This document shows positions 8,801-64,000 of a DNA stretch of 64,000 nucleotides, one piece after another. The notes under the pieces were generated by a model. It searched no databases. It saw nothing but the letters and a program-made list of their open reading frames with translations, and was not told the DNA's origin. This DNA comes from Gordius albopunctatus (lineage: Eukaryota), in the NCBI GenBank assembly GCA_964276515.1, contig OZ193909.1, positions 17,422,001 to 17,486,000 of the forward strand, written 5' to 3'. Position numbers and translations under genes: made by a program. Position 1 is the stretch's first letter, and the number at the start of each line of letters is the position of its first letter.

Positions 8801-9070
8801 ACCTCGTGGGCCCATTACCGCCTTCTAATGGACACATCTACATTTTCACCGCAGTCGATCGTTTTACCAGGTGGCCCATGGCAACCCCAGTTAAGGATGC
8901 ATCAGCTGAAACTGTAGTCCGAACATTTTTGATGCATTGGATAGCTAACTACGGAGTACCCACTACTACATTAACCACAGACCGAGGGCCCCAATTCCAA
9001 TCTGCCCTATTTAAACACTTATCTGTTTTATTAGGTTACCATCATATAACCACTACAGCTTACCATCCAC

Positions 9071-9272
9071 TAGAGTTATTAAATTGCTAACTTTCTTCAA
9101 CTCCAGCTACCATCTGCTCGAATTTCTGCTCGTCCCTCGAGCATTTTTTTATGCTAATGCTCTGCCTAGGGCACCAAAAGCGAGCACATATTGTGCTAAC
9201 GCGCATATTAAGCAACTCAGTGTGCGTGCTCGCGTCTGGAGTTTGAAGAAAGTTAGCAATTTAACAACTCTA
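9071..9272. mobile_element. hAT-type MITE (202 bp) inserted in the integrase of gypsy element 1
   Basis: TIRs of about 36 bp (TAGAGTTATTAAATTGCTAACTTTCTTCAA.../...TTGAAGAAAGTTAGCAATTTAACAACTCTA) and a perfect 8-bp TSD CCATCCAC (9063-9070, 9273-9280). It splits TTAYHP|QANGMVER. Confidence 0.93.
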
Positions 9273-9977
9273 CCATCCACAAGCCAATGGTATGGTAGAG
9301 CGATTCCATCGATAGCTAAAATGTTTGATTACCGCCAAAGGAGACACTACCAATTGGTCTGATCGAATTCCCCTTGTACTCCTAGGTATCCGATGCACCG
9401 TCAAGGAAGACTTATCCTGTTCGAGCGCTGAGCTGGTATACGGTACCTCTTTGAGACTGTCAGGAGATTTTTTGCAACCTTCAAAGGGCGACATAAATGT
9501 CGCGGATTACATCCAACGACTTTGAAAGCAGTTTGATCACGTTCGTTTCACACCCACCAGACCATCAAATATCAAACAACAGATTACCAACAAATTAGTG
9601 ACAGACACTCACGTGTTTGTAAGAGTTGACCGGCTTCAGAAATCTTTAGTCCCTCCGTACGAAGGCCCTTACAAGGTGATCGAAAGGCATTCTAAATATT
9701 TTGTCATAGACCACAATGGAAAAAAGACACCGTATCAATTTATCGCTTAAAGCCAGCCTTCCTTGAACCGAGATCCGATTTCCCCAAATCCATGTCCCTC
9801 CCCTCCAAGCCAACCATACAACCCGCTGTGTTCACTCCTCCCAAAGCAAACAATTCTTCATCTCCACCAACCAAAATCACTCCTACACCAATTACCACCA
9901 AGTTCGGCCGTTATGTCCATTGGCCCAAGAAGTTTTGCAATTTTATGTAACGCTCCACGTCTACGAAGGGGACTATT

Positions 9978-10125
9978 TGTAGGATATAAAATAGGAGTTG
10001 ACAAGATATGATGTAGCTTCTATATTCCTTGTGTCACGCGTTGCATCGAAATGCCATTTTTACCGATTTATTATTACTTTCTTTTTCGCTTACATATCGC
10101 AATCGTATCACAATTGAATATTATA
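9978..10125 (+). repeat. 3' LTR of gypsy element 1
   Basis: Matches 5691-5857 and is preceded by a polypurine tract. Confidence 0.9.
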
Positions 10126-13300: not shown

Positions 13301-15311
13301 CTCTGCCTGGGCCAGCCAAATTCTGACATTTCTGCGATAAAATGTGGGTATTTTCAGCTGTGTAGTTGCTTCAAATTCCTGTCTAGTTTCCATTTGAATG
13401 AATAATATTTAGAAAAAAAATTATTGTTTGTGAGCGATAACTAATTAATCTCCGAGATTGTTGAGGGGAAAAAAAACGGGGTCACCATTTTTAGTGAGAG
13501 GGGAGGAATATAATTTATTACATGATAAAAGGAACAATGATACGAATCTTATAAAAGAGTGAGTTTATATAGCATTAGATAACGATAACATTCAAATGAA
13601 AGTTGATTGTGTGTGTGTATTCTTTCTATTTTCACCTTGTACGTATTACAACCAAATCTCTTCCAAGGTAACTGTAATTTGTTTCCCTACACACATATAT
13701 GCATTACTTTTCACATTACAAGCTGGGTTTGCAGGTGCACTCAAATTACTATAATTTCTATAATTGTGCAATATAAAATAAATACACGAACCTATATTGT
13801 ATTCGATAAATAACTATTTAATGCCAAAGTTAGTTGGGATTGGAAGGTAATTATTTGTGAGAGCTATCCCGTATAGCATAGTATATGCATATTCCAACAC
13901 TTTATTTATCAAAATTTATAAACATATAGATGGCGTCATCGAGTAATATACATGTTTAACAATTAATTAAATTTTTATATAAAAAAATCTTAATTTTTTT
14001 AAAATAATAACTAAAAACTTTTTTTTCTTCATTTAAAATTGTAAATATTTAAAAAGTTTGATGCATCTTGAAAAAGGAAAATAGTTAAAGTAAAATAAAA
14101 ATTTATTCTTAAATTTATCGCATAAAACAAGAGATTTTTATCAGGTTAACCTGAGGTCAGCCTGGGTTTCAGGTTGGGGATAAAATTGACCTGAAGGTTT
14201 TTCAGGTTGATTTTCGGGATCAACCTCAAGCTAAGGTTCGGCGAACCTAAAACCGACCTGAGGTTTGACCTCGGGAAAACCTGACCTAGGTTTTGATCAT
14301 CACTAATGGTAATATTAATTGACTTAGCCAGGGTTAATAACTGGTTTCAATTGTGCAACTAAGTCAACTATAAGCGAACTTATAATTTTCTCAGTCTATT
14401 TAGAGTTGACAACACAGTAAATTTGATACAAATATTATAGTTTGCTAGAACCATAAAATTTAATTTTTTATACTTCAAATTTATTTTTAGTTTGCACTTT
14501 CCATAGAAATATTTTCTTTATGAATTAATTAATATCTATATATTCTCAATGATATGTCGTGTCCCGATCTTTAAAAAGTTTGTGTATTAAAGTTTTTTAA
14601 AAATATGAAAGTTTGCCATTTGGATTTTTTAACACTTATTTAATATTTTTAATAAAACAAGAACGATTTTTATTCCGTATATAGTTTGTTTTTTTAATTC
14701 GAGACGAGATCGCAACACTAGATTTAAAAAACTCCTGGTAATCTCATGATTTAATATAATGCCTTTGAACACAATGGGCAGACAGACAAGTCGCTGGGGT
14801 TCTATAAAGATTTGTAGACGTTGTAGCCGAATTTACATACTTTTTTTGGATTAATTAACCACAGATTCACGAGAATTCAAGATGCTTTGGAAGTATTTAG
14901 TACATCATCAAAACTCATTTTAAGTCTATGTGTTTATATTATTATATATACTGCTAAAGGTTTAAGTATGGAATAAATATAATAAAAATGTAGTTTCATC
15001 TCTTAAGGGCCCACTCATATTTTATTCAACGAGCTAAAATTATTAAAATATTAATTATACGCGGCTATACCTGTGTATGGTAAATTACCCAATATCGAAA
15101 ATATTCCAATTATATTAATTTACTAACATTCTAAATGTGAATCACAAAATAAAAAATGCATTAATAAAATTACTATATTATGATGATCAATTAAGAATTT
15201 TTAAAGTCGAGATCTCGCCGATAAAATCTCTGATCGTCTCGATCACTACCCAATTTTTTATAGTCTCGTCTCATCTCTTCGAGATTTTTATTCCATTTAC
15301 CGCATAATTAG
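10398..15311. mobile_element. Non-autonomous DNA element of the CGAGACGAGA-repeat family, split by later insertions (gypsy element 2 and another MITE)
   Basis: Left end TAGTGATGCGGAAAAACCGAGAAAAATCTC. The right part (about 15050-15311) matches 51440-51751, which ends TTCCGCATCACTA. Subterminal GAGAC/GTCTC repeats. Boundaries are approximate. Confidence 0.5.
10905..13720 (-). mobile_element. Internally deleted, decayed Ty3/gypsy element 2 (same broad clade as element 1)
   Basis: LTR copies at about 13491-13720 and 10905-11058 (the latter truncated). PBS TGGTGACCCCG (minus strand, about 13477-13487) is complementary to the tRNA-Trp 3' end. Gag (LKELWLNKLP), RT (SKWSSPLHMVPK, YIDDIL), RH and the IN zinc finger are present. 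The end of gag, most of PR and the IN core plus PPT are deleted. Confidence 0.92.
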
Positions 15312-15436: not shown

Positions 15437-16240
15437 ATCTTCTTCTTCTTTATCAGTTATTTGGTCCCACATTGGTGGGGTTTGTTTTGATAAATTTCTT
15501 CCATCTTGACCGGGTGAGTGCCATGTCTTGACTAATCTCTTTAGCTTCCATAACTTTATCGACTTGCCCTTTCCACGTGACACGGGGTCGTCCTCTTCCT
15601 CTCTTCCCCGGTACATACATGTCCAGTACTTTTCTATTTACGTCATCCGTATCCCTCATTAGTATATGACCATACCACCTTAGCCGATTTTCGTTAATCA
15701 TGTCCGCCATAGGTTGAATACCCATTTTTGTCATGAAAAAGTCATTCGTCATATGGTCGAGCTTAGTATACCCCAAGCTCCACCTCATCATTCTCATCTC
15801 TGTGGCTTGTAATAGCTTTAATTCCGTGGTGTTTAATGCCCATGTTTCACTTCCATAGAGTAACACCGGTCTTACGATGGATTTGTAAGCTTTGCTCTTC
15901 AACCATATTGGCATTTTCTTGTCACACAAAACACAGGATATACTTCGCCATTTAAGCCATCCTTTTTGGATCCGGGCATTGACCTCTGTTGTGCAACCTC
16001 CCTCTTGATGTAGCATCGAGCCGAGGTATGTGAACCTGTCTACTTTTGGGTACTTTAGATGGTCATCCAGCGATGGGGTGCCTGTACCGTTCATTTCCAT
16101 GTATACCGTTTTTATATCGTTGACCTTTAAACCATATCCAGCTAAGCGCTTTGACCATTTTTCGGCTTCTTCGAATACTTTGTTTCCTCGCATAGTACTA
16201 TATCATCGGCATATCTAATACACCATGGCGAAGGCTTTTA
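15437..16240 (-). mobile_element. 5'-truncated non-LTR retrotransposon (RTE-like LINE), C-terminal half of RT
   Basis: PWCIRYADDIVL near 16195-16230, then a frameshift into ORF 15453-16193 (FTYLGS, RPVLLYGSETW, RLRWYGHILMR, GKRGRGRPR). A very short 3' end with a (GAA)n tail at 15437-15452. Confidence 0.92.
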
Positions 16241-16312: not shown

Positions 16313-16715
16313 CAGAGGTCAGATTTGTTAGAATTTTTCTGCCCGAACCAGGCCCGATTTTAGAATTAATCTGCCCGCCCGAACCCTTCTGTGTCCGCCC
16401 GGCAATGCCCGAATTATCCCGGCTGCCCGGCCCAAAGTGGTGTGTTTTAAAATTTTTAGCACTACTATCGTTATATTTTTTTAAACTTTTTATCTTAATT
16501 TTTGGATTTTTTTAAAATGAGAACTAGGATTAACAAACATTGTGAAATCCATTTTGGAAAGTGGCAAAATATACACAAAAACAATATAATACATTATTTT
16601 AAAAACGAAATTGAGCCCGAATTGCCTGAATCTTGTTATGGTGCCCGCCCGAAAGTTAAAATTTACAACCTTTCCCGGCGCCGGGCGGGTTCGGGCCAGG
16701 CAAATCTGGTCTCTG
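16313..16715. mobile_element. hAT-type MITE with GC-rich subterminal GCCCG repeats
   Basis: TIRs CAGAGGTCAGATTTG / CAAATCTGGTCTCTG and a perfect 8-bp TSD ATGTGTAT. Confidence 0.9.
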
Positions 16716-17236
16716 ATGTGTATATTTTATAAAATGCGGATCTCTTAAGATCAATGTGTACCATCTGCGCGTGCGCCTCTTACACTATTTTAAACATGGA
16801 CTTTTCCGAGTTATTCATCACTCATATATTTTTATAATATTGGAATATATTTCGCGGAATGAATAAACGTTACAATAATTATCGCTTAAAATATTCAATT
16901 AAAATTAATTAATAAATCTGCTTTATTCTACCGTAATCGTTGGCTAAGAAAATATTGCGTCCATACAGCGCTCGGACATATTACTTAGGTAGACCTCTAA
17001 AATTTGTAAAGGGCTTTAAATTAAATTTTCAATAAAATAAGTAAGGTCCATTATGAAGACCAAAGCGATATATATTGTGTACATTTGATGAGCGCATCTC
17101 GTGCTTTTTAAATAAAACATCATAGACAATAATTTATTGTAGAATCAACAGCTTTAGGTCATCATAGCAGCATACAGTAGAATATACGAGATCTGTCTAA
17201 ATGTAGTCGTTTCCAACAAAACGAAATTGATATGCA

Positions 17237-20200
17237 TTAAACGTTTTTGATAACTATAGTGGCTTTTGCGGTGATTGTAGTTATGCTGTGGTGGCTTGAT
17301 AATATCAATTGCTGGTCTTTATCCCGATTTTTATTAGAGCCGATTTGATTCAGTTCAATAGGCGATTCCATTTTCGTCGTGGCACTTGCGCTTTCAGCTG
17401 GCAAAGATTCATTTCCGGCGGAAATGTGAGTTGCGTTTAATAATATAATTGGGTCCGGACTTATGCTATCTTCTGAGGTAGTGATCAAAGACGGAGATTC
17501 TTCTAAACAAATATAAAATAAATAAATCTCACTTATTTATCTTTCGATTGATTAGTTACAATAATTGCGGTACTAACTAAAAGTAAATCAATGGCGTTCT
17601 TTCTGCATGGGTAATTCGAAACTTAACCAAACCCAATAATGGGTAAATTAAAATGTTTGGATTTAACTTGAATTGGGATGATACACACAAATAACCATAT
17701 CACCAAAAGTTTAATTTTTTGTAACTAAAATAGGCTATTGCTTCCATACTTTAAGGAATTTTCTCTAAAATAGATGATTTCAAATTTTCTTATAAATTTA
17801 AATGACTGTTTTGGCAGGTGTAGTAGATGCGTTGTTTAACCACCCGCACTTATGATTGATGTTTTTATGCTCTCTAGTTATGTGGTTTTTTCACTTTGAT
17901 CCTCTAAATACACAGGCTTTTCTTTTTAATAAAATGATTCGAAATATTTTCTTACAACAGATTAAAACGTCTGCGCAAAAGTGTTTAGATTTTTACATTA
18001 TCCATTACCTTATTCTTAAATGATATTTTTTCCATGCATTTTCGAAAGGGATAGTGTTAATTTAATAAACACATCACTAACTAACTATTCACAAAGGCCG
18101 CCTCACCCGAAATGGTTGACAAAGAATTGTCCGACTGTATAAATGCGTGTCCACGCTTATCCTGGCCATAATATCTTTTGTGAGCTCCGTTGTGTCGACG
18201 AGAATTTATTTTGGGGTGTGTAGCAACGGGCAAAAAGTCTCTTTGCTGTTGTTGATAGTTTTGCAATGGTCCGTGGGGACAAGAGTGCGCTCCGTGATGA
18301 TAGTATACCATGGGTTGCTGTTGGTTCAAAGAGTTTATGTTGGGGCAGTGTATGTAATCTTTAAAGTTCACATTGCTTTCGGTGTTAAGCTGGTCAGGGT
18401 TTGTGGTCTCTATCGCTTCCTGAGAGCGGGGTTGGTCCAAAGTTAAATGGCTAGCTTGGTCTTTAAGAGTTACCTAAAGGGTCAATAATAATTAATTGTT
18501 ATACAGGAAAATTTCGTAAATTCTAATAGGCATTTGTTGGATAAGTAATAGCTTTTTGAAGATGATAATAACCCCTAATAGGAGTGGCGCAATTAAATTA
18601 AAAGTATACCCTAATTAGCGTCATCTAAAGGCAGTTTTAAATAAAGGCTAAATTTATTAATTAATTTCACATACATGAAGAATCTGAAATAATAGCTTTG
18701 ATATTTAAATAACTTTAATAGGAGTGTAGAAATTAGTGGGTATTACCATGGGTTTGCCCGGTAAAAAGTTGAGAATCAGTGGACAAATCATCGTGATTGT
18801 TATCGTGGTTACGACGGAGTTGATCATAAAACTCTTTGTGACGAGCCTGCACAAAAACGAAATAATTAAAAGAAAATATAGTCATATTCAAATAATAGTG
18901 ACCACTTCATTAATGTGTGCAAAGACTATTAACACTTAAAAATTTATTATGTTTAGTTTATTAAAACCATTTTTAAATTTCTAAAGGCATACGACAAACG
19001 AATATTTAGCTTTAAAAACTTTTATGTTTTAAACAATTTTACCGGATCCAATTTACGATTATGTGCAATATTAGGGCTTACTTTGGTATTAGTTCGAAGT
19101 CGGAAAAATGCATGCAAAGGACGCATATAGCGTAACCGCCCATCACGGATAATGTGTAGGGCACAGCTATACCGTACAGAGTATTAAGGCGGGTCAACTT
19201 GTTTCCCACCAAAGTTGGGTACATCTACATAAACCGAATCAATGAGTAAATTTACACGAAATCCATTATTTAGCAAGCTTATTGCCGTAGCTACGTTTTA
19301 AATAGGGGCAAGGGGAAGCAAACCAATGAACTTCAAATACTTTAACTATAATTTTATTGAGCGAAATAGGGGCCCTAAGGCTTGAGCCTGAGAAATTGAA
19401 TAAAAATGGTTGGGGCTTCATTTGTATATACTATTGTAAAACTCAGTAGGGTCACCCTACACAAACTTATCTCTAGTCTTGTTTGTCCCAGAGACCAGAT
19501 TTGCCCGGCCGGGTCGGGCAACTATCATAAATTTTAACTTTCGGGCGGGCACCATAACAAGATTCGGGCTAAATTTTGTTTTTAAATAATGTATTATATT
19601 GTTTTTGTGTATATTTTGTCACTTTTTAATTTATTTTATGTTTGTTAATCCTAGTTTTCATTTTTAAAAAAATCAAAAATAACTATATTAGTGATAAAAA
19701 TTTTGAAACACACCATTTCGGACCGGGCAGTTCGGATAATTCGGGCATTGCCGGGCGGACACATAGAAGGGTTCGAGCGGGCAGATTAATTATAAAATCG
19801 GGCCGGGCCGTGTTCGGGCAGAAAAATTCTAACAAATCTGACCTCTGGTTTGTCCCACCCAATTATGTGATTGATTGTGGTGCTTGCATCTAGTCAATTT
19901 TTTACGTTCATATCGCTGCAATTCCTGACTTACTAAAAACGTCTAGTTGTTTGGATAATTTTAAAAAACGCGTCAGCTAATTGTTAATGATGGTGCAAAA
20001 TAGAGTCAACAAATTTAGTGCTAAATTGACTATTAGCAACCACCGATTCGTTTTCTAGGTTCCTAACCAACTTAAAATTTAATGTAAACACCGAAAATTC
20101 ACGGAAGCATATTACAATAGCCAAAACTAATGAAATATTACTAAAGTCGACATGAAACTTTATTCATCATTTAACAAAAAGCAATGGTAATAGCACAGTT

Positions 20201-46803: not shown

Positions 46804-48197
46804 ATGTCTAAGTAACTTTTATAAGTACATATACATACATATTAAATTTTTGCCTAAAATAAAGGCAATAGTGTTTTTTTATCGACAAAATCTATCAAAT
46901 TAAATTCTAAGTTCACAGAGTCGGGATAGTATATTAAAAGTTTAAATCTATACAAGACAAGTTTATTATACAGTATAGTTTTATTATTATATAGAATATA
47001 TACTCTTAAAGAATTTAGACTTACTTTTTTAAATAACTAAATTCACAGGATCAAATGTTAAATTGCTGCACTATGCCTAAAAATTAAAGCTAAAATATTA
47101 AAATGAGTTTTGTATTTAAACCCCAAGTGTTATCTCCGTGCAGTGTGACCAGGGGGTGGCAGGGAGAGACGGTTGTTTCACCCTAAGCCCAATTTTTTTA
47201 AGATTCAATATAATTATGGCTTAAATAAAAAAAATCTATTATTTTGCTCCTCCCTAAAGCATTATTGCCCCCCTATAGTTACAACCCTGGATTTGCACAT
47301 ATCTCCGCCAAGCGCGTAGGGAAGGGGGGGGGGTTTTCGGGTTTGAACCACCCCCCCCTCCTCCTGGATATTATTTTTTTTCAAAACACAACACAAAATT
47401 ATTGAATTAAGTCGACAAGTTAATAAATTTTGAATTTCGGAATTTGTATTATTGATTAAAAGCTTCCAAAAAGTTCCGCGCCTTATTATGAAGCGATATT
47501 CCATTTATACATACTTCCCTAAAAAGAGTAACATTTGCATTTCTGAGGAGAAAGATACAAATATTCAATTAAGGACATCCAACTTTTGGCTGTCTTTGTA
47601 CATGCTAAATCAAATTTTCTCTTACACTATTAATCTTAGCAATTATTTGCAAAGGATTAATATAGACCTTTCTCAGGCCATAAATGCAGCCGAAAATGCG
47701 TTTATACAGATTCAACATTTGCGGGAAAATTCCCAAGAAGAATTTAGAACAATCTACAATGATGTCTTGTCACTAGGAGATATATATTATTTCAAAATTA
47801 CTATTCCTAGGAGAGCCTCACGACAAACACTTCGTTTAAACATTGAAACATCTTGTCCAGAAACTTATTACAGAGTTTCGTTGTATAACTCCTTTTTAGA
47901 TGCGGTTTTGGTGGAACTTGATGAAAGGTTTCTAAAAAAACAAGCAAATACTGTTGGGATTTGATTCCCTTCTAATTAAGTCCCCTGTCATGCTCTCAAC
48001 AGAGATATTAAATAACTTTCTTCAATTGGCAAATTTTTATGAAGATGATCTTGACGGCTCTCAAGAACAATTCAAATCGGATATTAAATTGTGGTATCAG
48101 TCGTTCAAGGACTGTGAATTAGAGAATTTGCCTACCGATGCATTGGAAACATTAACCAATCATGCGTCCAAATTAAAATTACATCCAAATATAAAAA

Positions 48198-50039
48198 CTC
48201 GGGCCTTCGGCCCTCGTGGGAAGGGGGAAGGGGAGGGAAGGGGGAAGGGGAGGAGGGGAAGGAAGGGGGAACTCATCTACACTCCGTATAAATGTATCAT
48301 ATTTGCTATGCAATTTATGGAAATACTTACGTGAATATTGCAAAACGAAGGTTGGAAGCACTAAATAAGTGTATATGCCAAATATCATAAAGGGGGAGAA
48401 AGGGAGCGAAGGGGAAGCTTTATGGTTAGTTAAATTCTACGGGAGTTGTATTACCAAAAAGTCATAATAGCAATGGTAGGAACAGGAACAATCATAATAG
48501 TCAAAAAAACGAAAAAAAAATTTCGATTCACATTTTGGCCAATGGTCATTTTTTTCTATTGGTCAGCAGCCAGGACACGGTAAAAGTGGATATAAATTCA
48601 TAACAGTCAAAAAAAACGAAAAAAAAGTTTTCGAATCACATTTTGGCCAATGGTTATTTTATTCCATTGGTCAGCAGCCAGCGGACGGCCAAAAAGTCAT
48701 AATAGCAATGGTAGGAACAGGAACAATCATAATAGTAAAAAAAAACGGAAAAAATAATTTCGATTCACATTTTGGCCAAAGGTCATTTTTTCCATTGGTC
48801 AGCAGCCAGGACACGGTAAAAGTGGATATAAATTCATAATAGTCAAAAAAAACGAAAAAAAAGTTTTCGAATCACATTTTGGCCAATGGTTATTTTATTC
48901 CATTGGTCAGCAGCCAGCGGACGGCCAAAAAGTCATAATAGCAATGGTAGGAACAGGAACAATCATAATAGTCAAAAAAAACGGAAAAAATAATTTCGAT
49001 TCACATTTTGGCCAATGGTCATTTTTTTCTATTGGTCAGCAACCAGGACACGGTAAAAGTGGATATAAATTCATAACAGTCAAAAAAAAACGAAAAAAAA
49101 ATTTTCGAATCACATTTTGGCCAATGGTCATTTTATTCCATTGGTCAGCAGCCAGCGGACGGCCAAAAAGTCATAATAGCAATGGTAGGAACAGGAACAA
49201 TCATAATATTCAAAAAAAACGGAAAAATAAACTCGGATACACATTTTGGCCAATGGTCATTTTTTTCATTGGTCAGCAGCCAGCGGACGGCCAAAAAGTC
49301 TTATTATCATTGATAGTAACAAGAACAATCATAAGAGTCAAAAAAAACTCCGGGATTCTAACCCAAAAACTAGATAAATTGCATAGCAATTATTAAAAAG
49401 TATAGGGTAATTATCAATGTTAACCTATTCAAAAACGAACAAAAAATTTTGATTTATTTGGCCAATGGTAATTTTTTTCAATTATCAATGTTAACTTATT
49501 CAAAAAGGAAAAACGAAAAATTAGGATTTATTTGGCCAATGTTCATTTTTTCATTGGTCAGTAGCCAGCGGACGGTCAAAAAGTCATATTATCAATGGTA
49601 TTAACAAGAACAAAATATTAAATTAATTAAAAAAATAAAAATTTTGCCCTCTCCGGGATTCGAACCCACATTAAATAGAGGCATAAGCCTTTGGAGGGGA
49701 ACAGGGAACCATATAAATAGAGCCATAGGCCCTTGTAGGGGAGGGCATAGGGTAATTATCAATGTTAAACTATTCAAAAACGAAAAATTAAAAATTTCGA
49801 TTTATCTGGCCAGTGGTCATTTTTTCATTGGTCATTAGCCTGCGGACGGTCAAAAAGTCATATTATCAATGGTATTAACAAGAAAAAAATATTAATTTAA
49901 TTAAAAAAAAAAAAAAATTTGTCCTCTCCGGGTCTCGAACCCGCAACCTCCAGGTCGGGAAGCTGGTGTAAATAACTTGGTGGACGGACGGACGGACGGA
50001 CGGACAACCAAAAACGAGCCCATAAATTGCATAGCAATT
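48198..50039 (-). mobile_element. Helentron/DINE-1-like non-autonomous element with central tandem repeats
   Basis: Perfect 18-bp subterminal inverted repeats (48303-48320 TTGCTATGCAATTTATGG and 50020-50037), a (GTCC)n microsatellite near the 5' end (49982-50005), and a terminal hairpin GGGCC-TTC-GGCCC (about 48201-48213). It is inserted in an A/T run without a TSD. Confidence 0.8.
48455..49900. repeat. Higher-order tandem array: units of about 236 bp, each with two related subunits, about 3.5 clean copies then degenerate copies
   Basis: AAAAAGTCATAATAGCAATGGTAGGAACAGGAACAATC recurs at about 48456, 48691, 48927 and 49165. TTTTGGCCAATGGT...ATTGGTCAGCAGCCAG occurs twice per unit. Confidence 0.92.
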
Positions 50040-50702: not shown

Positions 50703-51751
50703 AGTTGCGATCTCGTCTCGGTCTCGAAAGCAAAATCTCGTCTCGTCTCGGGTGCAATTATTAAAATCTCGATCTCGTCTCGACTTTTAAAAATAATTAT
50801 ACCATTTAATATTTTTCTGACTCTTATAAATTATTATATAAGATATAAATTGGTCATAATGGATCCAATTTTTTATTTCAAACCCCAAAACACAAGCTAG
50901 ATGGGTATCTTAAGGCAGGAAGCATTATTGGAGGTGTTATATATACTACTTGCCTCGAAGGTATAAAGTTGCTAAACAATGACTTTCATTTCCTGGCTAA
51001 GGCTCAATAAAAGGATAAAATTTAATAATACCATCTTATTTTAACTTAATAAATTTATTGAGATCTTATATAATATGATCAAAATAATGACAAAAGTGCA
51101 AGAGTAAACCTTTGAAGATATTATTAATAACAAGTAATTATCTGAACATTGTGAATATAATAAAATAGGCATTTTTGTTGGAAGAACATAACAGTTTTGA
51201 GATCTTACGTTAATTGCACATATATAACTTAAAATATAAAATTTTCTTTAAAGCACAATTTACACTTCTCCATTTTATTTGATTCATCCTTGAATACTGT
51301 TAAATGTTTGAGCAGCTTGCTCTTTTTTGTTTTGGAGGATGAACTTTTTGCGCATAAACACATTATAGGTCTAAATAATTTTATATTATATAAGCTATAC
51401 AAATAAGTAACAAATACCCAAATACCCTAAGAGCTACTAACACTATGTCTATTAAGATTATATTACAAGTTTGAAATTTGCGGGAAGCAGATAATTAGGT
51501 GCGTAAGTAATTACTATCAAAAGTTTCAAAATCATATTAATTTGCATTAAATACCATAAATTTAAATCTCATAAAATAAAAATTCTTATTTAGCTAAATG
51601 AAGACTTAATAGATAAAAATTAAAGTCGAGATCTCGCCAAAAAAATTTCGTCTCGTCTCGAGGTCAAAATTCTCGTCTCGATCTCGACTCAATTTTTTTC
51701 GGAACGAGACGAGATGAGACAGAGATTTTTCTCGGTTTTTCCGCATCACTA
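50703..51751. mobile_element. Non-autonomous DNA element of the CGAGACGAGA-repeat family
   Basis: Subterminal TCTCG/CGAGA arrays. Shares blocks with 53610-54237 and with 10398-10500 and 15050-15311. Confidence 0.7.
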
Positions 51752-53324
51752 GTAATAAATCATAGTATAATGTGTCTCTCTTCCTCGCTCATCACCCAAG
51801 CGTTTTTTATAATACCCACTAGAGATCTGCAACGAGCCCTTTTTAAAATGTCGGCCCGCCTGTATTCACTTTGAAAACTTTCAGGCCCGCCCGAACCTGT
51901 CCGTAACTTTTTTTGTCCACTTCGGGCTCGTCCCTACCCGTTTTAAAAACATTCAAGCCCGCCCGGTTCCGTCAGTATTTATTTTCGTAGACTTCAGGGC
52001 TGGCCCTCAAGATGGGCTCGTTAGGCCCGGTTCATTAATAAATTTATTATTTATGGAGAATGTATTGCGATTTACAATAATTTATAGTTAGAGGTGTTAA
52101 GCAACTAATTACATGTAACTAGTTCCTGAAATAATTCCTTTATCAAAGATAGTAACTCTAATTAGTTTTTTAAAGGGGAACTGTGGCGGAGTTAGTTACG
52201 TTTTTTTAATGCCTGTTCAATTAAGTTATAATTACATTCTATAAACTTAAAAATCAAGTGCGTCTGTCACACATTAAATTTAGTGGCAGCTAGCAATATA
52301 AATAAAAATTTGTTAAAAGAATATGATTTAGCATTTCCTATATGTCATCAATAACTAAGTGCCAAAATATAGGGATATTCATAGAAGATATACCATGCTT
52401 TTAAACTTATTTTTGGGAATTATTATGTACTATACTTACTAGATGAAATAGTGTGTTTGGTTCATAAAAAGGATTTTCAATAATATATCAGAAAAGTTGT
52501 CACAATTTTATTTGCCATGCGATGAACTAAATTTAGTAAGGTTTCTTAAAAGTGATTTTGATTCTATTGCAAATCAAAATTTTATAAATATTTAATCAAA
52601 TAGATTGTTTTTTAACTTCTGTTTTTTTATTAAATGAAACTATAAACAACTATAAAAATCATATGCGAGGTAAACATTCGAAAATTGCGATAGCGTTGAA
52701 ATGACAAATAATGATTCCGGTTTGTTTATAGTTTCATTTAATAAAAAAATAGGAGTTAAAAATTAGATTGTTTTAATAATAAAGGTATAGGAGTCCTTAC
52801 CTAACTCTATTGAATTTTTAGAGCAATTTAAGCCCTTACGTTTTATTAAAATAAAGTAATATCAACCATATTTGGCAATCTTAGCCGGGTTACTGTCATA
52901 AATTGAGAATTTCGGGCAAGCTAGGGCGGGCACCATAACAATATTCGGGCTCAATAAGATTTTATTTTTATGTTTATTTGTCACTTATATGATTGGAAAA
53001 TAGATACTGATCGTATATCCCCCCCCCTCCCTACCAACAGAAAAAAATTGCGAATTAATACAAAATATGGTTGGAAAATACAACGTGATTACTGTTGAAA
53101 TTTTGATAAATTATCATATCGGATGGTACAGTTATAACAGCTCTAATAATTCGGGCATGACCTCATGAACACTTAGAATAGTTCGGGCGAGCCATTCGGA
53201 CTGAGCCTAGTTCCTGCAAAGAAATTTAAACAAAGATAACGTCTGGTGTCAACCTTTTAAAAAGCTATTTAGATGGATTAAAAAGGTACAATTTTGTACC
53301 TATTATTTAATTTCCACAACAAAT

Positions 53325-53608
53325 TATTTGCTTAGTATTTTATTCAAATTGCTAAGTATTTTTAGCGTCATTGCTAAGTATTTATTTATTTGCTAATTAT
53401 TTAATTCATTTGCTAAGTTTTTAAATTAATGATAAGTTTTAAATTCAAATGCTAAGTATTTTATTCATTTGCTAAGTATTTAAAAAAAATTTTCTAATTG
53501 TTTTGGTAAGTATTTTATATATTTGCTAACTATTTTATTTGTTTGCTAAGTATTTTAATGTTTTGCTAAGTATTTAAATTATTGCTAAGTATTTAAATTA
53601 TTGATAAG
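53325..53608. repeat. Degenerate minisatellite of about 21 bp (TTGCTAAGTATTT core)
   Basis: The core recurs about a dozen times at regular spacing. Confidence 0.85.
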
Positions 53609-53609
53609 T

Positions 53610-54237
53610 GTAGTGTTGCGATCTCGTATCGTCTCAGTCTCGAAAGTAAAATCTCGTCTCGTCTCGGGTGCAATTATTAAAATATCGATCTCGTCTCGTC
53701 TCGGCATAGAAAAATCTCGACCTCGTCTCGTTTCGTCTTTTAAAAACAATCATACCATATATTTTTTTCTGACTCTTATAAATTATTATATAAGATATAA
53801 TCGTTTTTATATAAGATGTCAATAAATTCATTATGTTAAAATATGATGATATTATTAAACTTTATACTTTTATTGAGCCTGAGCCAGGAAATAAAGTTAT
53901 TAATTAGCAACTTTATACCTTCGAGTCAAGTAGTATATTACACCTATATTAATGATTCCTACCTTAAGTTACTCATCTAGCTTGTGTTTTGGGGTTTGAG
54001 AAAAAATTGGTTTCATTATGACCAATTTATATCTTACATACTAATTTATAAGAGCTAGAAAAAAAATATATTTGGTATAATTATTTTTAAAAGTCGAGAC
54101 GAGACGAGAATTCTCGGCTAGACGAGACGAGATTGAGATTTTTCTAGGCCGAGACGAGATCGAGATTTTAATAATCGCACCCAAGACTAGACGAGATTTT
54201 TCTTTCGAGACCGTGACGAGACGAGATCGAAACACTA
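53610..54237. mobile_element. MITE with long imperfect TIRs (CGAGACGAGA family)
   Basis: TAGTGTTGCGATCTCGT...ACGAGATCGAAACACTA. The arms of about 180 bp are inverted copies. Confidence 0.8.
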
Positions 54238-55888
54238 GAAAATACTTGGCTCTATCGTTTTAAATTGGTTAAATAAAAAGATTAGATATAATTTATTTAA
54301 TAATACAATTAAAATAGTATGGTAAATATAAAGCTCGTTGTTGCGTTTGCAGTGCTATATTTGATGGGTAAATTTGGAATATTTTATCAATATTTTTGAG
54401 GGTTTTGAATTAATTACCAAAAAGAGTTTGCCAAAGTTAAAAATTAATCAAATATATATCTCGATGAAATCGTTGAATCACGAACAATTCGTTATAAATA
54501 AAAGAATATCTATAAAAACAGAGCTTATAAAAGAATAAAGTGTTGGTATTACTTACCTCAATGAAAGACGAAATAATGGCTATTTTGGGATGAAATTTGA
54601 GATAAAAAATACCATGAAAGAAAGAGAGGAAGACCAAAACAAACGTTTAAGCAATTTATCTATGAATTTAAATATATATTCAAATAAAAGGACCATTGAA
54701 AATAAATACTCAAACTGAACATCAGAGAATGTGATAAAAAGTAATAGCAAAACAGAATGAAGTTATCCATCAAATTATATCTGTAGCCTGTAGGATTACA
54801 TTACTCCAAGAAAAAATACCTTACATTCCTATCACCCCCGGATGTTATATTTTGGATTTTTTTTGTTGCGTTTTTAAATTAAGTTATTAATATCATATAA
54901 TAAAATCGATTTGTATTAGAAATGTGTAGAGGGTATTTAAAAAGAGTAAATATTAAAATATCATTTTACACTTTCATTTATAAACTAATGTCATTATTCT
55001 CTAAATCTTTACCATAAGGAAAATTGTTATTTTTCCAAAACCTCCAGTTTTTTAGATAAACGAGGCCTAAGTTGCAAAAAATGCCCATTTTAACCTTGTT
55101 AAGGTTATATCTCAGAGGTATTTTGTATTTATATTAAAAAATTTTAATATATTCCAGTAGATTAAAGTTTCTTCCATAGGTTCACTATTTTATTTTTTGT
55201 TTAACCACTATATTTTAATTTATTTGCATTTACGTGAACCCCTTCACCTTATTAAAATCGTCCACACTATACCCGGAAAATAGAGTACATTATACTACAT
55301 ACTACATGCGTGATGTTTACTAACACGTTACTCTCTCTCTTTCGCCTTTTCTTTCACTAATGGGGCGGAAAGTGGAGGAGAAAAAAAACATACTTAATGT
55401 ACTCTAATGTTCTCCATTTTCTAGGCAGAGTGGGACAAATTTTGATAAGGAGAAGGTGTTTACGTAAACGCAATATATTCATATATAGGGGTAAAAACTT
55501 TAGTCTATAAGAATATAGTAATATTTTTTTGTATAAATTAAAATTGCCATGGGTATAAAGCCTTAAAAAAGTTAAAATAGGCTTTTTCTGCACCTTTGAG
55601 ATCTTCAAAATGTAAGACTTTGGGAAAAACTAAAAAAAAACATATTATTATTTTATTCCTATCAGAAATATTGGTCTGATTGGGATAGAATCACAAAGTC
55701 AATATCCGTAGACCTAATTATCATACTTAACTTTATTTAATCAATATAAAACTGCTAGGCTTAAGTTTTAATTTTAAACTTATGCATTGCTCTCATAATA
55801 GCCTTATAACCAACTTCGTCATTGATAAAAATCGCTGTAAAAATAATCAGCTGTCAAAGTACCTTTAAGTCACATAATAATATAAAAT

Positions 55889-56772
55889 ATGATATCCAAG
55901 TTGCAAATAGTAAATATTTTTACAAATATATATGAATAATTAATTTATAGCGTGCACTTTCTACAAGTCCAAATTGCTTAAATATAATTAAGGTGAGTGT
56001 TGGTTTACATTATATACATAATTTTAGCCTGCTCTTCAATTATATGGCTTAAATGGGAGATATGCACATGCTTTATATTCTGCGGCATATAAAGAAAAAA
56101 AATTAGAAATGGTCGAAAAAGAATTAAAAACAATAACACAAAAATTTGGTACAGATATAAAATTTTCGAGTATTATCAACAATCCATTGATTCCTCGCAA
56201 ACCAAAAAAAGAATATATTGTGGAGTGTTTGAAAAAAATGAACTTTTCTAACATTGCCACTAGCTTTTTTAGTAATTCTATGTATGTATTAATATATAAT
56301 ATAGGTTTAATTGTTGAAAATGGAAGGTACAATAAAATTCCGTCTATATTAAGGGCGTATGAACGCATTATGGAGTCACACAGAGGTGAAGTAGCTGCTG
56401 AAATTGTTACTGCTAAGGTAAACTATATTATATGATTTTTCGCAAACTAATTTTAAGTGCAAGGCTATATAATAACATATATATTATTTTAAAAATTTTT
56501 ATAGCCTTTAGAGAAAGATACTCTTAAAGAAGTTGAAACAGCTTTACAATCTCTAATTAAGAAAGGGGAAATACTTAAACTCACCACTAAAGTATTTTTT
56601 TATTATAATAAAATCTTTTGTCTATCAATTAATACTATGTTTATTTAATTCAAATTAGGTTGATCCAGGAATTATAGGAGGCATGATAGTTCGAGTTGGA
56701 GATAAGCATGTGGATATGTCAATGGCAACTAAATTGAATTTATTTAAAAATACCTTAATGCACCCTGTTTAG
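55889..56772 (+). CDS. ATP5PO: Mitochondrial ATP synthase subunit O (OSCP); 6 exons
   Basis: Exons 55889-55909, 55951-55992, 56028-56271 (PALQLYGLNGRYAHALYSAA), 56305-56417 (LIVENGR...HRGEVAAEIVTAK), 56505-56591, 56659-56772 (VDPGIIGGMIVRVGDKHVDMSMATK). All introns are GT-AG and phases are consistent. Confidence 0.96.
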
Positions 56773-59700
56773 TATTATTTATAATTTTTATATCGTTTTA
56801 AAAAATTTTATTGCTATGTAATTGTGCATTTTCAATCAAAACAATGGATAGTAGTCTACCTAATTTGCTAAAACTTTTAGAAATTTCTTTTAGAGCAAAA
56901 GTTGAGTGCATATTTTCTGTTGAAAAACACTTTTTTTGAGTTTAGTTTCTGAGCCATGTCAGACCACTTAATCAATCTACCACCTATTAAAAAATTTAAA
57001 CCTCATTGCATAGGCTGAATTATCTTTCTCCTTGCATATCACCTAATTTTATCATAGGAACATTTTACACACCACGTTTAAAATAGTAACTCCAATGTTA
57101 AAGGGCTCAAGATAATGTTTTTTAATTTCTGGCCCAACTTGTGACCAAGCTAGGCTTAACACCTATTTTTAATCCCAACTTTTAAGCAAGCTTTACATTT
57201 AGAAGTTTATAGAAAAAAAGAATGAAATTGTTATTATAAGAAGTAAAGGATTAAGAATTCAATTTATCTTGCTACGATTTAAATATTTTAAAACATAAAG
57301 GTTTATATATGATAGCTTCTTAGAATTGTAAAAAGATTCTTACGATTTTAAAAATGTGTTGGTTATAAGAAGTATGGGCTAGTGTTTGAAATGTTTAATA
57401 TAAACCCTGTACAAACACTGCTGGATAATTTATGAAAGTATTTTTAGGATAGTATATTAGCTAAGGCTTGCTTTGGACTTCGGGTTGGCCTATCAGGGTC
57501 GACTCAAACCTAAGATCTAAATATATTAATTTTCGTCCGTCCCTGGCCCCAAATCCTCTTTCTACCCCCCGCGCAGGACTCTAGCCTAGCCCTGAGGACT
57601 TTAGTGTAAATGTAGATAAATCCGTTTTAAACAATTAATCTTTCAAACTGTCAATAATAATTTAAGTTAATTGTGTATAGTTGTCGTTATTTTATTTAGG
57701 GGTTATAATATTTGAACAATACTTGCCTCTCAAAAACGTCCTCTGTTTTTTTATAATCGATGTTAATTTGTTAAAATTAGGAAATTTGACAATAATATAA
57801 AATAAAACATATATAACGAAATGCTTCTAATAAGGAAAATAAACTATTCTAATACAAAATTATATTTGCAAGATTTCCTGAGGGGGTGGGCCGTTCATAA
57901 AATTTTCATGAATAATACTATTAAACAAAAATTTATTAAGGTTACTAACTGACCCGGCAAACGCTGTTTTGCTATATACATTATTTCTAGAAAATACTAT
58001 AGGTGGTGATCATATAATGAGCGAATAAAATATAATTGGCCTATGGGAAATAATTCGCGAACTTAATGTAGGAAGAATTAACACGCTAACTAAATACAGA
58101 ACATAAATACATAAAGCAAAGTACTTAATATTATTCAATATAAACGTTAAATACGAATAACCGTTAAAATTGTATTTTTTGGGGCCTTTAATGCAAAATC
58201 ACTGACTTCCTTAAGAAATATATGAATTTGTGGTTTGCTTCAAATTTTTATTTAATTTGTAAATTGCCACAGGTTTTTTTTAGTAAAGATGCTAAAAACA
58301 TTTTTTGGTCCTACCGCAAAATCACGATTCTGGCAAATGGCCGTTTTCGGACTTCAATCAAAACCTCAACCCGCCCTTAAAATCCTTTTATTTTTGCGCC
58401 TGAACATATTTTCGCGCGTCCAGCTTTTCACTTATTTGGGCAAACTACAATTCTGCTTATATCAGTTTTGTATTCATACGAGGATAATATTTTTCTATTT
58501 TTTATTTTAGAATATATATCCGAGCGGTGATTTGGGTGGATTACGAGGTGGGGGGATAGGGCCGGCTTAAATATATACTTATTTTTATTTTACATGGTCG
58601 GTTATTTTATTTTATTCATTATAAAAAAAACTAAGAGAAGAAAAAATCGCGTTATCAAGATCAATGACGCATGCAATCATAATATCAGGGGGAGAAATAA
58701 CAAATACGTATAAGCGCGTGGGGGGGGGGGGAATAACATACGCGTAAATAAAATCAAGTGTAAAGGAAACGTACCGCCTTTGAAGTGGTAGGGTTCAGTA
58801 CTATGTATATAATCAGTACACAGATGTTGGATCAAAAGAATCTTGTAATGAATGAACTTTTAAATAAACATGGGGGGTGGGACAAATCTTCGGATATGAC
58901 ACCTTTCCTTTTTCAAAAAAAATTTAGGACCAGAGGTAGACAAAAGAATAATTGATATAATGTAATTGGATGGTTTTTATCAACAACGTTCTGATTATGG
59001 GTTTACAATATTAAGAGTAAAAATAACAAAAAATATTGTACTAACATGTGTAACCTTCAATAAAATCATATGGTCTTCTCCTTTGAAGAATTAAGTATTC
59101 GTGTAAAATCATGTGGTCTTCTCCTTTGCAGCATTAAGAATCCATGGCAAACGGGATATATTTATAATTACCTCATTTATGACTTGTGGGAATAATCCGC
59201 GTGTTATTTAATGTTCGCGGTATACTTTGATCTTAATTAAAATTATTTTATTAATGTTAATGTAAAAGGGTTAACGAACGGTTCCGCAATCCTTGTAATT
59301 AAAAAAAAGGAATTGGTCAAAAGAAGACACTTTTACCGCAGGTTAACCCAGACGCGGAAGTGGCTAATTCTCTTTGACGCTCTCTTTTTTTAATTACTTT
59401 TACTTTTTATTTTTAACTCAGCCACATCTGTTACTAATCTTTGCAGCCCCGTCTGAAGATTTGCTAATTCAATCAAGCCGACCACCCTGGGGAGATCCAA
59501 CAGCTATAAAAGCGAAAATCTCACTTCACTAAAAAAGTCCTCGTAAATTTGTCCCCAGTCCTCGTAAATTTTTCCCCAGTCCTTCGAAGTTTTCCCCTAA
59601 CTTTGTATTTTCCCCAAAAACCTTATAATTGTTTCCAATCCCTACGCCTTCGCTCTTTTACTATAATATTATTGAATTTTGTAATTTAATCTTCGCGAAT

Positions 59701-59786
59701 ATTAATCTGTCTTTATCGTTGTAAATAAATTCGCATCTTTCTTTTTACTTAATTTTTTTTCGCCTTAGACCGCCGTCCATTAAATT

Positions 59787-59797
59787 TGGTGTCAGAA
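59787..59797 (+). promoter_or_regulatory. Primer-binding site (tRNA-Leu type)
   Basis: TGGTGTCAGAA is complementary to the 3' end ...TTCTGACACCA of tRNA-Leu(CAA/CAG). Confidence 0.8.
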
Positions 59798-60372
59798 TCG
59801 CCCTCTTCTTAAAAAAAAGGAATCGTAAGTAAAAATAATTTTTTTAGTAAAAGATTTTTATTTGAATGTTGGTTTAAATAATTATAATTGAATATAAGGT
59901 CTGATCGAATATTTCTGTTGTAAAATATTGGAATAGATTTGATCATATAATGTTCGGTTGTAAAATATTATATTGAAGTTATTAGGAGGTGAATATTTCT
60001 ATTTATGCATAATAATGGATAAAGGGTTTTTATGTTTGATAATTTTACTTTTAATCGTGATACTTATATTAAATAATTATTATATACGTCTATGTTTAAT
60101 AAAATGGTTACTGTATACATTATGATAATTAATTTATTTGAAAACTCTTGTTTGATTTACTTAATTAATTTTTGATTAAACGAAAACTTTTGTTTAGATT
60201 ACTTAATTAAGCTTGGTTTTAATTAAATTGCTTTATTTAATTAAATTTGATTTTCTATTTAAATTATTTAGTTTATTTAATTTAAATTGCTGTTTGATTG
60301 AATTTGATTTCTATTTAAATTATTTAGTTTAATTAATTTAAATATAGTTCTGATTGCATTTGGTAATTTATA

Positions 60373-60876
60373 ATGTTTGGTTTTTACACGCCGCCGTCAA
60401 TTGGTATCAATTTTTTTAATTATTTGTGCGCAGATAAATTACTTGTATATATATCAATTTTAAGCATATTAGTTTTATTTGTCTTATATAAATTAAAGAA
60501 AATAGAAAAAGTTTTTGTACTTAAGGCTAATTTTAAATCTAATATAAGATGTTATGGATGTGGGCAACGGGGACATCTCAAAAGGGATTGTGACAATAAA
60601 TATTTTAAAAGGGGGAATACGGGAAATTGCAGATATATTTCGGAAAATTTTGCACAACGGGGTCCGAGAGAAAATTTTAATAATTATGCGCAACCCCATA
60701 GACCCTACACTGACTATAGATTTAACCAGAAAAACGTTCCAAGTTTTAACGCACCCACCACTTCGAATAATTACGACAACACAAAAGAGGTTGGGGACGG
60801 TAAATTTTGTTATAAGTGTAGAGGACACGTCAATCACGCGCAAACAGTTGCTAATGGGCAAACTGTGTTTGATTGA
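60373..60876 (+). CDS. gag: Atypical short Gag-position ORF (167 aa): predicted TM helix plus CCHC zinc knuckle, no recognisable capsid domain
   Basis: LLVYISILSILVLFVLY followed by KLKKIEK, then CYGCGQRGHLKRDC (CX2CX4HX4C), an N/Y/R-rich region and a degenerate CYKCRGHVNH. Confidence 0.8.
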   Translation: MFGFYTPPSIGINFFNYLCADKLLVYISILSILVLFVLYKLKKIEKVFVLKANFKSNIRCYGCGQRGHLKRDCDNKYFKRGNTGNCRYISENFAQRGPRENFNNYAQPHRPYTDYRFNQKNVPSFNAPTTSNNYDNTKEVGDGKFCYKCRGHVNHAQTVANGQTVFD

Positions 60877-63800
60877 CTAGCGCAAGATAATTCAAATTAC
60901 ATTGATATGCGCAAGGTAGATATAAATAAAGTTTTAAATTCCTCAGCTTCACCTTTAGTGATAGTAAATGTCGATAATTTTAAGCTAACATTTATATTAG
61001 ATACTGGCGCCGCAATATCCATTATTAGTTTTAAAACATTTAAAAAATTTTGGCCGGATCGAAATTTTGAAACTGCTAATATAATTGCTAAGCAACTTGA
61101 TAATACTTTAATAACTGTTTTAGGTAAAATTAATGTTTTGGTTAAAGTGGCAGAATTTGTAGTCGAATTGGATTTATTTATTATTAAAGAGAACGTAGAT
61201 AACATAATGGGCTGGTCCTGGATTAGGATAATTGGGCCCAAAATTCAATGGTGGGGATTATGTAATAAAAGTAATGCTCGCAAAATTTTGAAAGTTGATG
61301 TTAAGTCCATGGTGATGTCGAAGGCGTTGTCAGGTAGTTCACAGTGCAGGGATTTCACACCCGTTTTTCATTCTGAGTTAGAGCGCATAGCTCATAAATC
61401 AGATAACTCGGGAGGTCCCGTCTGCCAAGAACAACCCATTTTTCAGGCCGATTTAAAGTGCGGGGTACCTTTGGTACCCACATGCCATAAATTAGCTAAT
61501 TTGGAGGCAAAGTCTGATTTGGTCACAACATGGCACACCAAGATTGATAATATAAAAAACCAATTCTCTAAAATTTTTGAACCTGGTTTAGGATGTTTAA
61601 ATGACGAAATATTTTCGGTTAGAGTTGATTTAAATGCCATTCCTAAATTTTGTTCTGCCAGACGCGTACCTTTTATTTTAAAAAATAAGGTCGACGAGGT
61701 AATTAAAACATGGTTAAAGGATAATGTAATTGAACCTATTGGCTATTCGGAATGGGCCACACCTTTAGTACCTGTCAGGAAGACTGACGGTACAATTAGG
61801 GTTTGTGCTGATTATAGAATCACGGTAAACAAATGTATTATTGAGGTAAAATACCCCTTACCTAGGTTAGAAATTATTTTTGCTAAATTAATAGGCGCTA
61901 AATTTTTCTCAAAAATTGACCTTGCCAATGCTTATTTGCAGTTACAGGTAGATGAAAAGTCATCGCGGCTCCTAACAATTAATACCGAGGCCGGACTTTT
62001 TAAATTTAAAAGGCTACCTTTTGGCTTAAGCATTTCAGCTGCTATTTTTCAGCGTGCTATGGCGTCGATTTTTAGTAATTTAGACGGTATAATATTTTAT
62101 TTGGACGATATATTAATAACGGGACGAACGAGAGATGAGCATGATTTGCGTCTTGTTCAGGTCTTGAATTTAATTAGTCTAAAAGATTTAAAAGTTTCAG
62201 CTAAAAAATGTGTTTTTGGGACTGAACAAATTAGCTATTTAGGACATATTTTAAATAATGGTAATATTCAACCAAAGTATGACAAGATAGAAGCCATTAA
62301 AAATGTTAAGTTGCCTACTAATAAAAAGGAACTATCGTCATTTATGGGTTTAATGAATTATTATAGTAAATTTATAAATAATTACACTGAATATGCTGGA
62401 CCATTATACGAACTGACAAAAAAAGACGTCATATTTAAATGGAGTAAAAGTGATATTGAAAAATTTGATTTTTTGAAAAATATCTTGCTTAAAAAACCCA
62501 TTTTAAGATGTTTTGATCCTAACAAACAACATATATTAAGGGTCGATGCGTCTAATATTGGTATTGGAGGCGCATTATGTCAGGTCGAGGATGGTATGGA
62601 GCATCCAATTTTGTATTTTTCGCGTAAATTAAATAAAACAGAGGTCGGATATTCGGTTATAGAACGCGAGGCATTAGCGATGATTTACGGTTTACAGCGA
62701 TGTCGCGAATATTTAATTGGCAAATCGTTTACTGTGATCACCGATCATAAGCCGCTTGTTGCTTTATTTAAAAAGGCGAACGCCGAACTATTAATGTCTC
62801 CTAGATTACAACGTTGGCTTGTAATGTTGGGTAATTTTACATTAACCCTAAAATACGGCAAGGGAGAGGATAATCATTTGGCTGATGTACTATCGCGTTT
62901 GGGCGCAGATAACATTGAGGCCGAAGATTTACCTTTGTCTTGTGATATTATAGGAGGACATGTAATCAATTCTTTGAATATTTTAGATTTAAATGATATT
63001 GTTAATGAAAGTAACAGGGACCCTGAAATATGTAAAGTAAAGAATATTTTGGCGGGCTTAGACGATAAAATTAATGTACCTATTCCTTTTAAACATATTT
63101 TGAACGAATTATATTTAGAAGATAATGTTCTTAAAAAGCATGAAAGGTTAGTGGTACCGATTAAGCTTCGTCAGGAAGTGCTAAAAATAGTACATCAGGG
63201 ACACTGTGGAATGGTTAAAATGAAAAGCTTGGCTAGACAATATGTCTGGTGGCCGCAGTTAACTAAAGATATCCAAAAATTCGTTAGGCAGTGTGAGCTT
63301 TGTAAGCTTGATGCACCGATGCCGCGTAGAAATAAAAAATCTAAGTGGCCTCGTCCTAAATTTCCATGGGAGCGTATACACATAGATTTTTTTGAATTAG
63401 ATAAAAAACGGTACATATTAATAGTAGATGCATTTTCCGGTTGGACGGAATTTAGAATTATATCAAATATATCTAGTAGAGTAACAATTACAATTTTGAG
63501 GGAATTGATAGGAAATTATGGGTTTCCAGAAATAATTGTTACGGATAATGGTAAAGCTTTTGTTAGCAACGAGTTTAAACAATTTTGTTTAAAATATAAA
63601 ATTAATCATATTTTAACTCCACCGTACCATCCAAGCTCTAATGGGCAGGTAGAAAGGTATGTAGGTATTGTTAAAAAATGGTTAAAAATAGCTAAAGTAA
63701 CGAAGGACGGAACGTGGTTATCTAAACTTTATCACAATATGTCACCACGGTATCCTAATCGTGCTCCGGTTAGCTATGAGTTTTTGAATCGTAAATTAAG

Positions 63801-64000
63801 GTACCCACCCGATTTGTTAAAGTTCACTGAACACCAAACATCGCCCAGTATTAGTGTGCCAAAGTTTAAGGTAAACCAAAGAGTTTGGTATCGAAACTAT
63901 TTGGGGAAACCTAAATGGGTGTTAGGTGTAATTATTGAACAATTAGGGACAAAAGTTTATAAAGTTAAGGACTCAAATGAAAATAAATTTGAAATTAGGC
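60877..64000 (+). CDS. pol: Pol polyprotein PR-RT-RNase H-integrase, uninterrupted to the window end (over 1040 codons), in frame with gag
   Basis: Manual translation shows no stop. Motifs: FILDTGAAISII (PR, about 60991), SEWATPLVPV, RLPFGL, YLDDI (62098), VDASNIGIGG/TDHKPL/ADVLSR (RH), HQGH...CELC, IHIDF/VTDNG/NGQVER (IN DDE). It is absent from the ORF track because it has no stop inside the window. Confidence 0.97.

Follow-up and report, generated by a model that had tools for sequence, protein, structure and literature searches.

A short Gag with a predicted signal anchor and no visible capsid precedes an open pol in a Ty3/gypsy element of Gordius albopunctatus

The locus described here raises the question of whether a Ty3/gypsy retrotransposon can make a Gag that carries a membrane anchor and a zinc knuckle in place of a capsid and is read through into an intact Pol, or whether a damaged copy only gives this appearance. 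The stretch analyzed, referred to below as the window, comprises 64,000 nt of the horsehair worm Gordius albopunctatus (assembly GCA_964276515.1, contig OZ193909.1, positions 17,422,001-17,486,000 of the forward strand). One copy of the capsid-less gypsy element was analyzed, and the window ends inside its integrase. An earlier note, made from the letters of the sequence, had drawn attention to a 167-aa ORF with a hydrophobic run, a basic patch and a CCHC knuckle; its coordinates, its length and the positions of these three parts were reproduced in our analysis. The features of the element are collected in Table 1.

Table 1. Features of the element, numbered from the first letter of the window
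Feature	Position	Strand	Basis
Probable 5' LTR, start uncertain	59262..59786	+	Sequence, repeats, position before primer site
Primer-binding-site-like motif, 11 nt	59787..59797	+	Sequence; TGG begins at 59787
AT-rich leader, 18% GC, possible intron	59825..60347	+	GTAAGT donor at 59825, AG acceptor candidate at 60347; splicing inferred
uORF, 36 codons, hydrophobic (KD19 2.77)	60015..60125	+	Sequence, hydropathy
Short gag ORF, 167 aa, single Met	60373..60876	+	ORF list, sequence
Predicted signal anchor (residues 23-39) and basic patch (residues 40-46)	60439..60510	+	Hydropathy, charge counts
Canonical CCHC zinc knuckle, residues 60-73	60550..60591	+	Pfam PF00098, E 5.9e-5
Incomplete second knuckle-like motif, residues 146-155, final Cys missing	60808..60837	+	Sequence
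In-frame TGA followed by CTAG, candidate readthrough signal	60874..60880	+	Sequence context
pol: protease (Asp at 61000), long linker, RT, RNase H, integrase; open to window end	60877..63999	+	Pfam, ORF

The segment taken as the 5' LTR is probably an LTR, judging from its place ahead of the primer site; it contained a TATA-like box (59505-59511), an AATAAA (59724-59729) and a 21-nt tandem repeat (59536-59597). At its presumed end (59780-59786), the usual terminal CA at 2-nt spacing was absent, and the nearest CA was located 7 nt upstream. The primer-site-like motif may match tRNA-Leu, and no tRNA gene was found within the 64-kb window, which also contained neither a second copy nor a solo LTR of the element. 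Elsewhere, the window held a complex tandem array of 108-, 128- and 236-nt units (48454-49915) and two pairs of long inverted arms separated by about 3 kb (16313-19847 and 50711-54237), which resemble non-autonomous DNA transposons. By eye, we assume that 15453-16202 (- strand) is the C-terminal part of an RTE-like LINE reverse transcriptase and that the fragments at 47434-48334 (+ strand) resemble a hAT-family transposase.

The order of the pol domains (PR-RT-RH-IN) and the gypsy-type RT place the element among the Ty3/gypsy retrotransposons. The earlier note had called pol fully open; this holds for the visible part, which runs through 1041 codons, and does not extend further, because pol is cut by the window end. 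Among the 120 Pol matches listed, the best were two proteins of Gordionus sp. m RMFG-2023, and the nearest relatives outside Gordionus were approximately 37-43% identical, many of them named K02A2.6-like; the label "Mag" for these matches is our own assignment from motifs. The Gordionus proteins CAK9291465.1, CAK9296000.1, CAK9303637.1 and XP_065315624.1, along with others, grouped with the element Pol at identities of 42-45%. In an RT-RH tree without outgroup, built from 45 of the 90 usable cores, the element Pol and two Gordionus proteins formed a clade with support of 100/100 on a long, separate stem, their nearest relatives being Mag-like. We also ran a whole-library HMMER search with gag, an X at the stop and the protease as the query; it returned 381 matches, of which 150 were listed, and Gordionus was the organism in five of the ten further matches that were looked up. 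A protease tree of 22 rows united the element Pol with nine models (99/97, with a long-branch warning). Neither a capsid nor a knuckle was fused to the protease in any of the nine, and seven of them began no more than 28 residues from the catalytic Asp. The other two, both Gordionus models, had long upstream parts of 91 and 142 residues with neither a hydrophobic run nor a knuckle. This pattern fits a gag and a pol that may be split across the lineage, although these protein matches do not inform on the gag genes of the lineage. A capsid match was present in 45 of the 77 other listed matches having a knuckle before the protease, and many of the rest were short.

The element Pol departed from 11 of 89 Mag-conserved columns, compared with 13 and 14 of 89 in its Gordionus relatives, and is thus not visibly decaying. 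The spacing between protease and RT was 250 residues in the element versus 160-190 residues in Mag-like elements. The linker responsible (window 61250-61540, + strand) exceeded that of Mag-like elements by about 80 residues and was Cys-rich; a long linker was also present in the Gordionus relatives, including CAK9291465.1, and CAK9303637.1 contained tandem Trp-Pro-Arg-rich repeats. Judged from these alignments and trees, the element is a Ty3/gypsy retrotransposon of a Mag-related branch that was seen in the present searches otherwise in Gordionus alone. The available text of two nematomorph genome preprints reports repeat content and gypsy abundance and contains no description of element structure.

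In the 167-aa Gag, Pfam recognized the CCHC knuckle alone, at residues 59-75 and above the zf-CCHC cut-off, which agrees with the knuckle near residue 60 in the earlier note. Residues 23-39 were uncharged, ended in Tyr and gave the best 19-residue Kyte-Doolittle mean (KD19) of 2.49, at residue 23, while residues 40-46 were basic; Lys and Arg accounted for 1 of the 15 residues before the run and 5 of the 15 after it. The layout of hydrophobic run, basic patch and positive-inside charge pattern is therefore that of a predicted signal anchor, as had been proposed. The Gag knuckle aligned with the second Mag knuckle in hhalign, and for the second knuckle-like motif a weak alternative placement on the first Mag knuckle was obtained (probability 1.4). 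A single-sequence structure model contained one helix, at residues 8-50, with low overall confidence (mean pLDDT 46), and a fold search with this low-confidence model yielded no match at E 0.001.

Searches for relatives of this Gag were mostly empty. Gag alone gave 26 candidates among proteins and none at E 10; the gag-protease region found no relative among 2527 candidate proteins shorter than 664 aa; three exact look-ups found none; an atlas search produced weak knuckle leads alone, all below 0.9; and viral contigs contained no relative. Metagenome contigs supplied 15 loci, and the best of them, L001 (37%), the one locus at which the Gag type was examined, has a conventional capsid Gag. No homologue of Gag residues 1-53 was found in protein searches, including the 150 listed of the 381 HMMER matches, in every one of which the best aligned stretch began at query residue 54 or beyond.

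The room available for a capsid was compared with that in 77 of the 120 listed relatives, chosen for an initial Met and a length of 1290-1430 aa. Their first knuckle lay at residues 96-263 (median 211), compared with residue 60 in the element, and their protease Asp, located in 68 of the 77, had a median position of 310, compared with residue 210. Between the primer site (59787) and the protease, the longest other stop-to-stop frame on the + strand was 53 codons, leaving the 167-aa ORF as the only sizeable one with gag features, as the earlier note had it. A capsid profile built from the first 300 residues of the 77 relatives, searched against all six frames of the window, matched only the knuckle. 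The gags of the window's other two gypsy elements went undetected by this profile too, and so it detects Mag-type capsids only; the lack of room is a stronger argument for the absence of a capsid than the profile. The suggestion that residues 1-59 are the diverged first part of a Mag capsid was rejected (hhalign probability against the profile 0.1); they were not reported by a profile restricted to the capsid, even though 655 of 1000 shuffles were. No gag remnant was found in the AT-rich leader, which had 18% GC, tandem repeats, no + strand frame above 53 codons and no profile match, again in agreement with the earlier reading. The capsid that normally precedes the nucleocapsid in Ty3/gypsy Gags was not found in the visible part, and the sequence evidence supports the absence of a capsid gene from the visible element.

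The two other gypsy elements, both broken and of another lineage, lie at 5688-10086 (+ strand) and 10962-13661 (- strand) and have short LTR pairs of 112 nt (95%) and 99 nt (97%). That both have a conventional type of gag, as the earlier note stated, was borne out by a DUF7041 match for one and, by eye, by similar fragments for the other.

Mag Gags contain a capsid and usually two knuckles, according to the available text of PMC2577118. The element shares the PR-RT-RH-IN order with Mag/K02A2.6-like elements and differs from Mag in its missing capsid, its one complete knuckle in place of two CCHC arrays, its hydrophobic N-terminus and its 586-nt leader. In addition, all 77 full-length relatives run Gag into Pol in one frame, whereas the element has a stop before pol. 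The distance from the primer site to the first knuckle was 763 nt in the element versus 682 nt in the conventional Mag locus L001. An old, in-place decay of the capsid region would fit these distances, and a long leader combined with a clean deletion fits them too. Microhomology or repeats marking a deletion junction were sought and rejected, as short AT-rich matches occurred at chance level alone.

Several signals bear on how such a Gag might be expressed. From 59510 to 59824 there was no ATG, compared with 3.5 expected. All eight upstream ATGs fell within 59866-60122, inside the leader, which also contained 42- and 56-nt tandem repeats, and none followed before 60373. The GTAAGT at 59825 is one of 12 on the + strand of the 64-kb window, and the acceptor candidate resembles those of the neighboring host gene. 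The leader may be an intron on these grounds, and ATG 60373 would then be the first start. The uORF in the leader could be a chance product or a second small membrane ORF. The host gene, encoding the ATP synthase OSCP subunit (55888-56773, + strand), has short AT-rich introns, one of which, by eye, is apparently 33 nt long and readable in frame.

A single in-frame TGA separates gag from pol, which continues in the same frame. Of the 972 TGA triplets on the + strand of the window, 14 stand in a TGA-CTA context, and TGA-CTA-G occurred once. The available text of PMC3159437 gives UGA-CUA as a type II readthrough motif, and the stop has the CUA of the UGA-CUA or UGA-CGG context that characterizes this type. 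The earlier proposal of readthrough into Pol is therefore supported by sequence context. As in MuLV and Tca2, one in-frame stop lies between gag and pol of the element, and its UGA-CUA context is that of alphavirus type II readthrough; no 3' RNA structure was detected after the stop (z -0.38 on one single 153-nt stretch; Rfam, 0 matches). For the gag UGA of Tca2, the part of PMC2194720 available states that the flanking sequence did not direct readthrough.

Taken as it stands, the ORF may be a real capsid-less Gag that joins an anchor to a nucleocapsid and is read through into Pol, a reading we favor tentatively and place somewhat short of probable. The sequence of events that we infer from expression to membrane insertion and replication would begin at the LTR promoter, with a transcript whose 5' end is free of ATGs. 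The AT-rich leader and its eight upstream ATGs would likely be spliced out or scanned past, and translation would start at ATG 60373. The anchor would insert with the N-terminus lumenal and the knuckle cytosolic, following the positive-inside pattern, and the knuckle would keep RNA of the element bound at the membrane. Readthrough of the UGA-CUA by a minority of ribosomes would make a membrane-tethered Gag-Pol, from which the protease could free RT/RNase H and integrase. Reverse transcription may then occur either inside the borrowed capsid of a related element or in a capsid-free, membrane-bound ribonucleoprotein.

A precedent for the first route is BARE-2 of barley, described in the available text of PMC4350172 as a Gag-less, Pol-bearing non-autonomous copia element that is mobile with the Gag of a helper. 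Pol is kept and the capsid is absent in both; BARE-2, however, is a plant copia element that makes no Gag, whereas the present element keeps a short knuckle Gag with a predicted anchor ahead of Pol. A borrowed helper capsid seems somewhat more likely to us than replication on the bare membrane. The two other gypsy elements of the window were considered as helpers and rejected, being broken and sharing only about 27% Pol identity with the element. Quite improbable, in our estimate, is the fullest version, an old horsehair-worm lineage without a capsid, in which an anchor and a knuckle would make up Gag, readthrough would tether Gag-Pol, reverse transcription would take place on membranes or in vesicles and vesicles would possibly pass from cell to cell; such reverse transcription would be like the replication complexes of positive-strand RNA viruses.

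Against the preferred reading of a functional anchor-nucleocapsid Gag, the best surviving alternative is one young copy with an in-frame deletion of the capsid, in which the N-terminal segment would be real coding sequence of the parent and the capsid-less state a dead end. We consider this rather unlikely. The parent would have had either a Gag with both anchor and capsid or a separate small membrane ORF upstream, like sORF2 of MDG1 elements, that became fused to the knuckle. A deletion of this kind would account jointly for the ATG, the open frame, the positive-inside pattern and the intact pol, and the sharp GC step at the knuckle (19% to 40% at 60556) fits a junction. In the available text of bioRxiv 2025.03.14.642691, about 8,400 consensus sequences of arthropod gypsy elements include 105 with small transmembrane ORFs ahead of gag, and sORF2 of the MDG1 group is a separate, N-myristoylated ORF of 63-107 aa beside a capsid-bearing Gag. 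The 167-aa ORF shares with such sORF2/FAST-like ORFs a short ectodomain, a single predicted helix with Tyr at its end, a polybasic patch and the upstream position. We screened it for 60-210 aa in length, one hydrophobic segment, an ectodomain of 10-50 aa, a tail shorter than 150 aa and at least three K/R after the helix; by hydropathy only, it showed 167 aa, a 22-aa ectodomain, a 128-aa tail and five K/R. It differs in being fused to a zinc knuckle and in frame with pol rather than a separate ORF, and it lacks the N-myristoylation motif MGxxxS/T, its second residue being Phe. What counts against the deletion, besides this missing motif, is that none of the nine models of the protease clade bears a capsid, although separate gag ORFs would escape those searches, and that a comparable hydrophobic run was found in only one of the 77 Mag Gags, apparently an over-extended model.

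A second alternative, which we regard as unlikely, is that the capsid is encoded beyond the visible part, after pol or through a spliced transcript, or is too diverged or too split by micro-introns for detection. The window does stop inside integrase, the branch leading to the lineage is long, gag types other than Mag would escape the capsid profile and introns of the host are seemingly as short as about 33 nt by eye. Against this alternative stand the low GC content of the leader, its tandem repeats, its short frames and a codon score of non-coding character. Furthermore, we know of no gypsy element with a capsid after pol.

The remaining alternative, raised in the earlier note, is a copy that lost its capsid and had T-rich leader DNA joined to its knuckle, so that the anchor would be a functionless product of chance. 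DNA of this kind often yields hydrophobic open frames. Of the open 59-codon frames in simulated leader-like sequence, 67 of 103 and 24 of 37 (about 65%) reached a KD19 of at least 1.8, and 9 of 103 and 7 of 37 reached at least 2.49; among AT-rich frames of the window itself, 8 of 38 reached at least 1.8, and the 36-codon uORF exceeds the Gag run in hydrophobicity. The hydrophobicity of Gag by itself is therefore weak evidence, lying within chance. Residues 1-59 were also leader-like in composition and codon choice, with an uninformative codon score of -0.3 bits that falls where the range for blocks of pol (-1.7 to 16.9) overlaps that for blocks of the leader (-5.0 to 2.7), and residues 1-53 are the part without a homologue.

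The combination of features was much rarer than hydrophobicity. An ATG followed by an in-frame hydrophobic run arose in 0.3-0.7% of simulated junctions, and in 0.06-0.12% at the observed strength; it would arise at 18 of 566 real leader positions, a number that is due to the uORF. An ATG-started open frame of at least 59 codons arose in 0.01-0.04% of simulated junctions and at none of the 566 real leader positions. An uncharged hydrophobic run with positive-inside bias was present in 25 of 3178 and 9 of 1168 simulated open 59-codon frames, and chance is expected to give a 59-codon extension that starts with ATG, is positive-inside and shares the frame of the knuckle in less than 1% of cases, by criteria chosen afterwards. 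As the chance criteria were set after the sequence had been seen and the finding was selected from a very large scan, a coding origin of the segment is favored and unproven. The junction simulations thus speak against an anchor arising by pure chance, and we hold the chance fusion to be very doubtful.

No report of a capsid-less or signal-anchored LTR Gag was found in the literature searched, with most subscription papers and Repbase lying outside the search. If the element is a single deleted copy, what remains of interest is a new Gordionus-like branch with a gag-UGA-pol arrangement. A helper-dependent family, or a parent with both anchor and capsid, would likewise be undescribed in the literature searched. 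If the element does represent a capsid-free replicating family, LTR-type reverse transcription and integration would be possible at a membrane or inside a shell borrowed from another element, and such a family would allow the need for a capsid to be tested directly.
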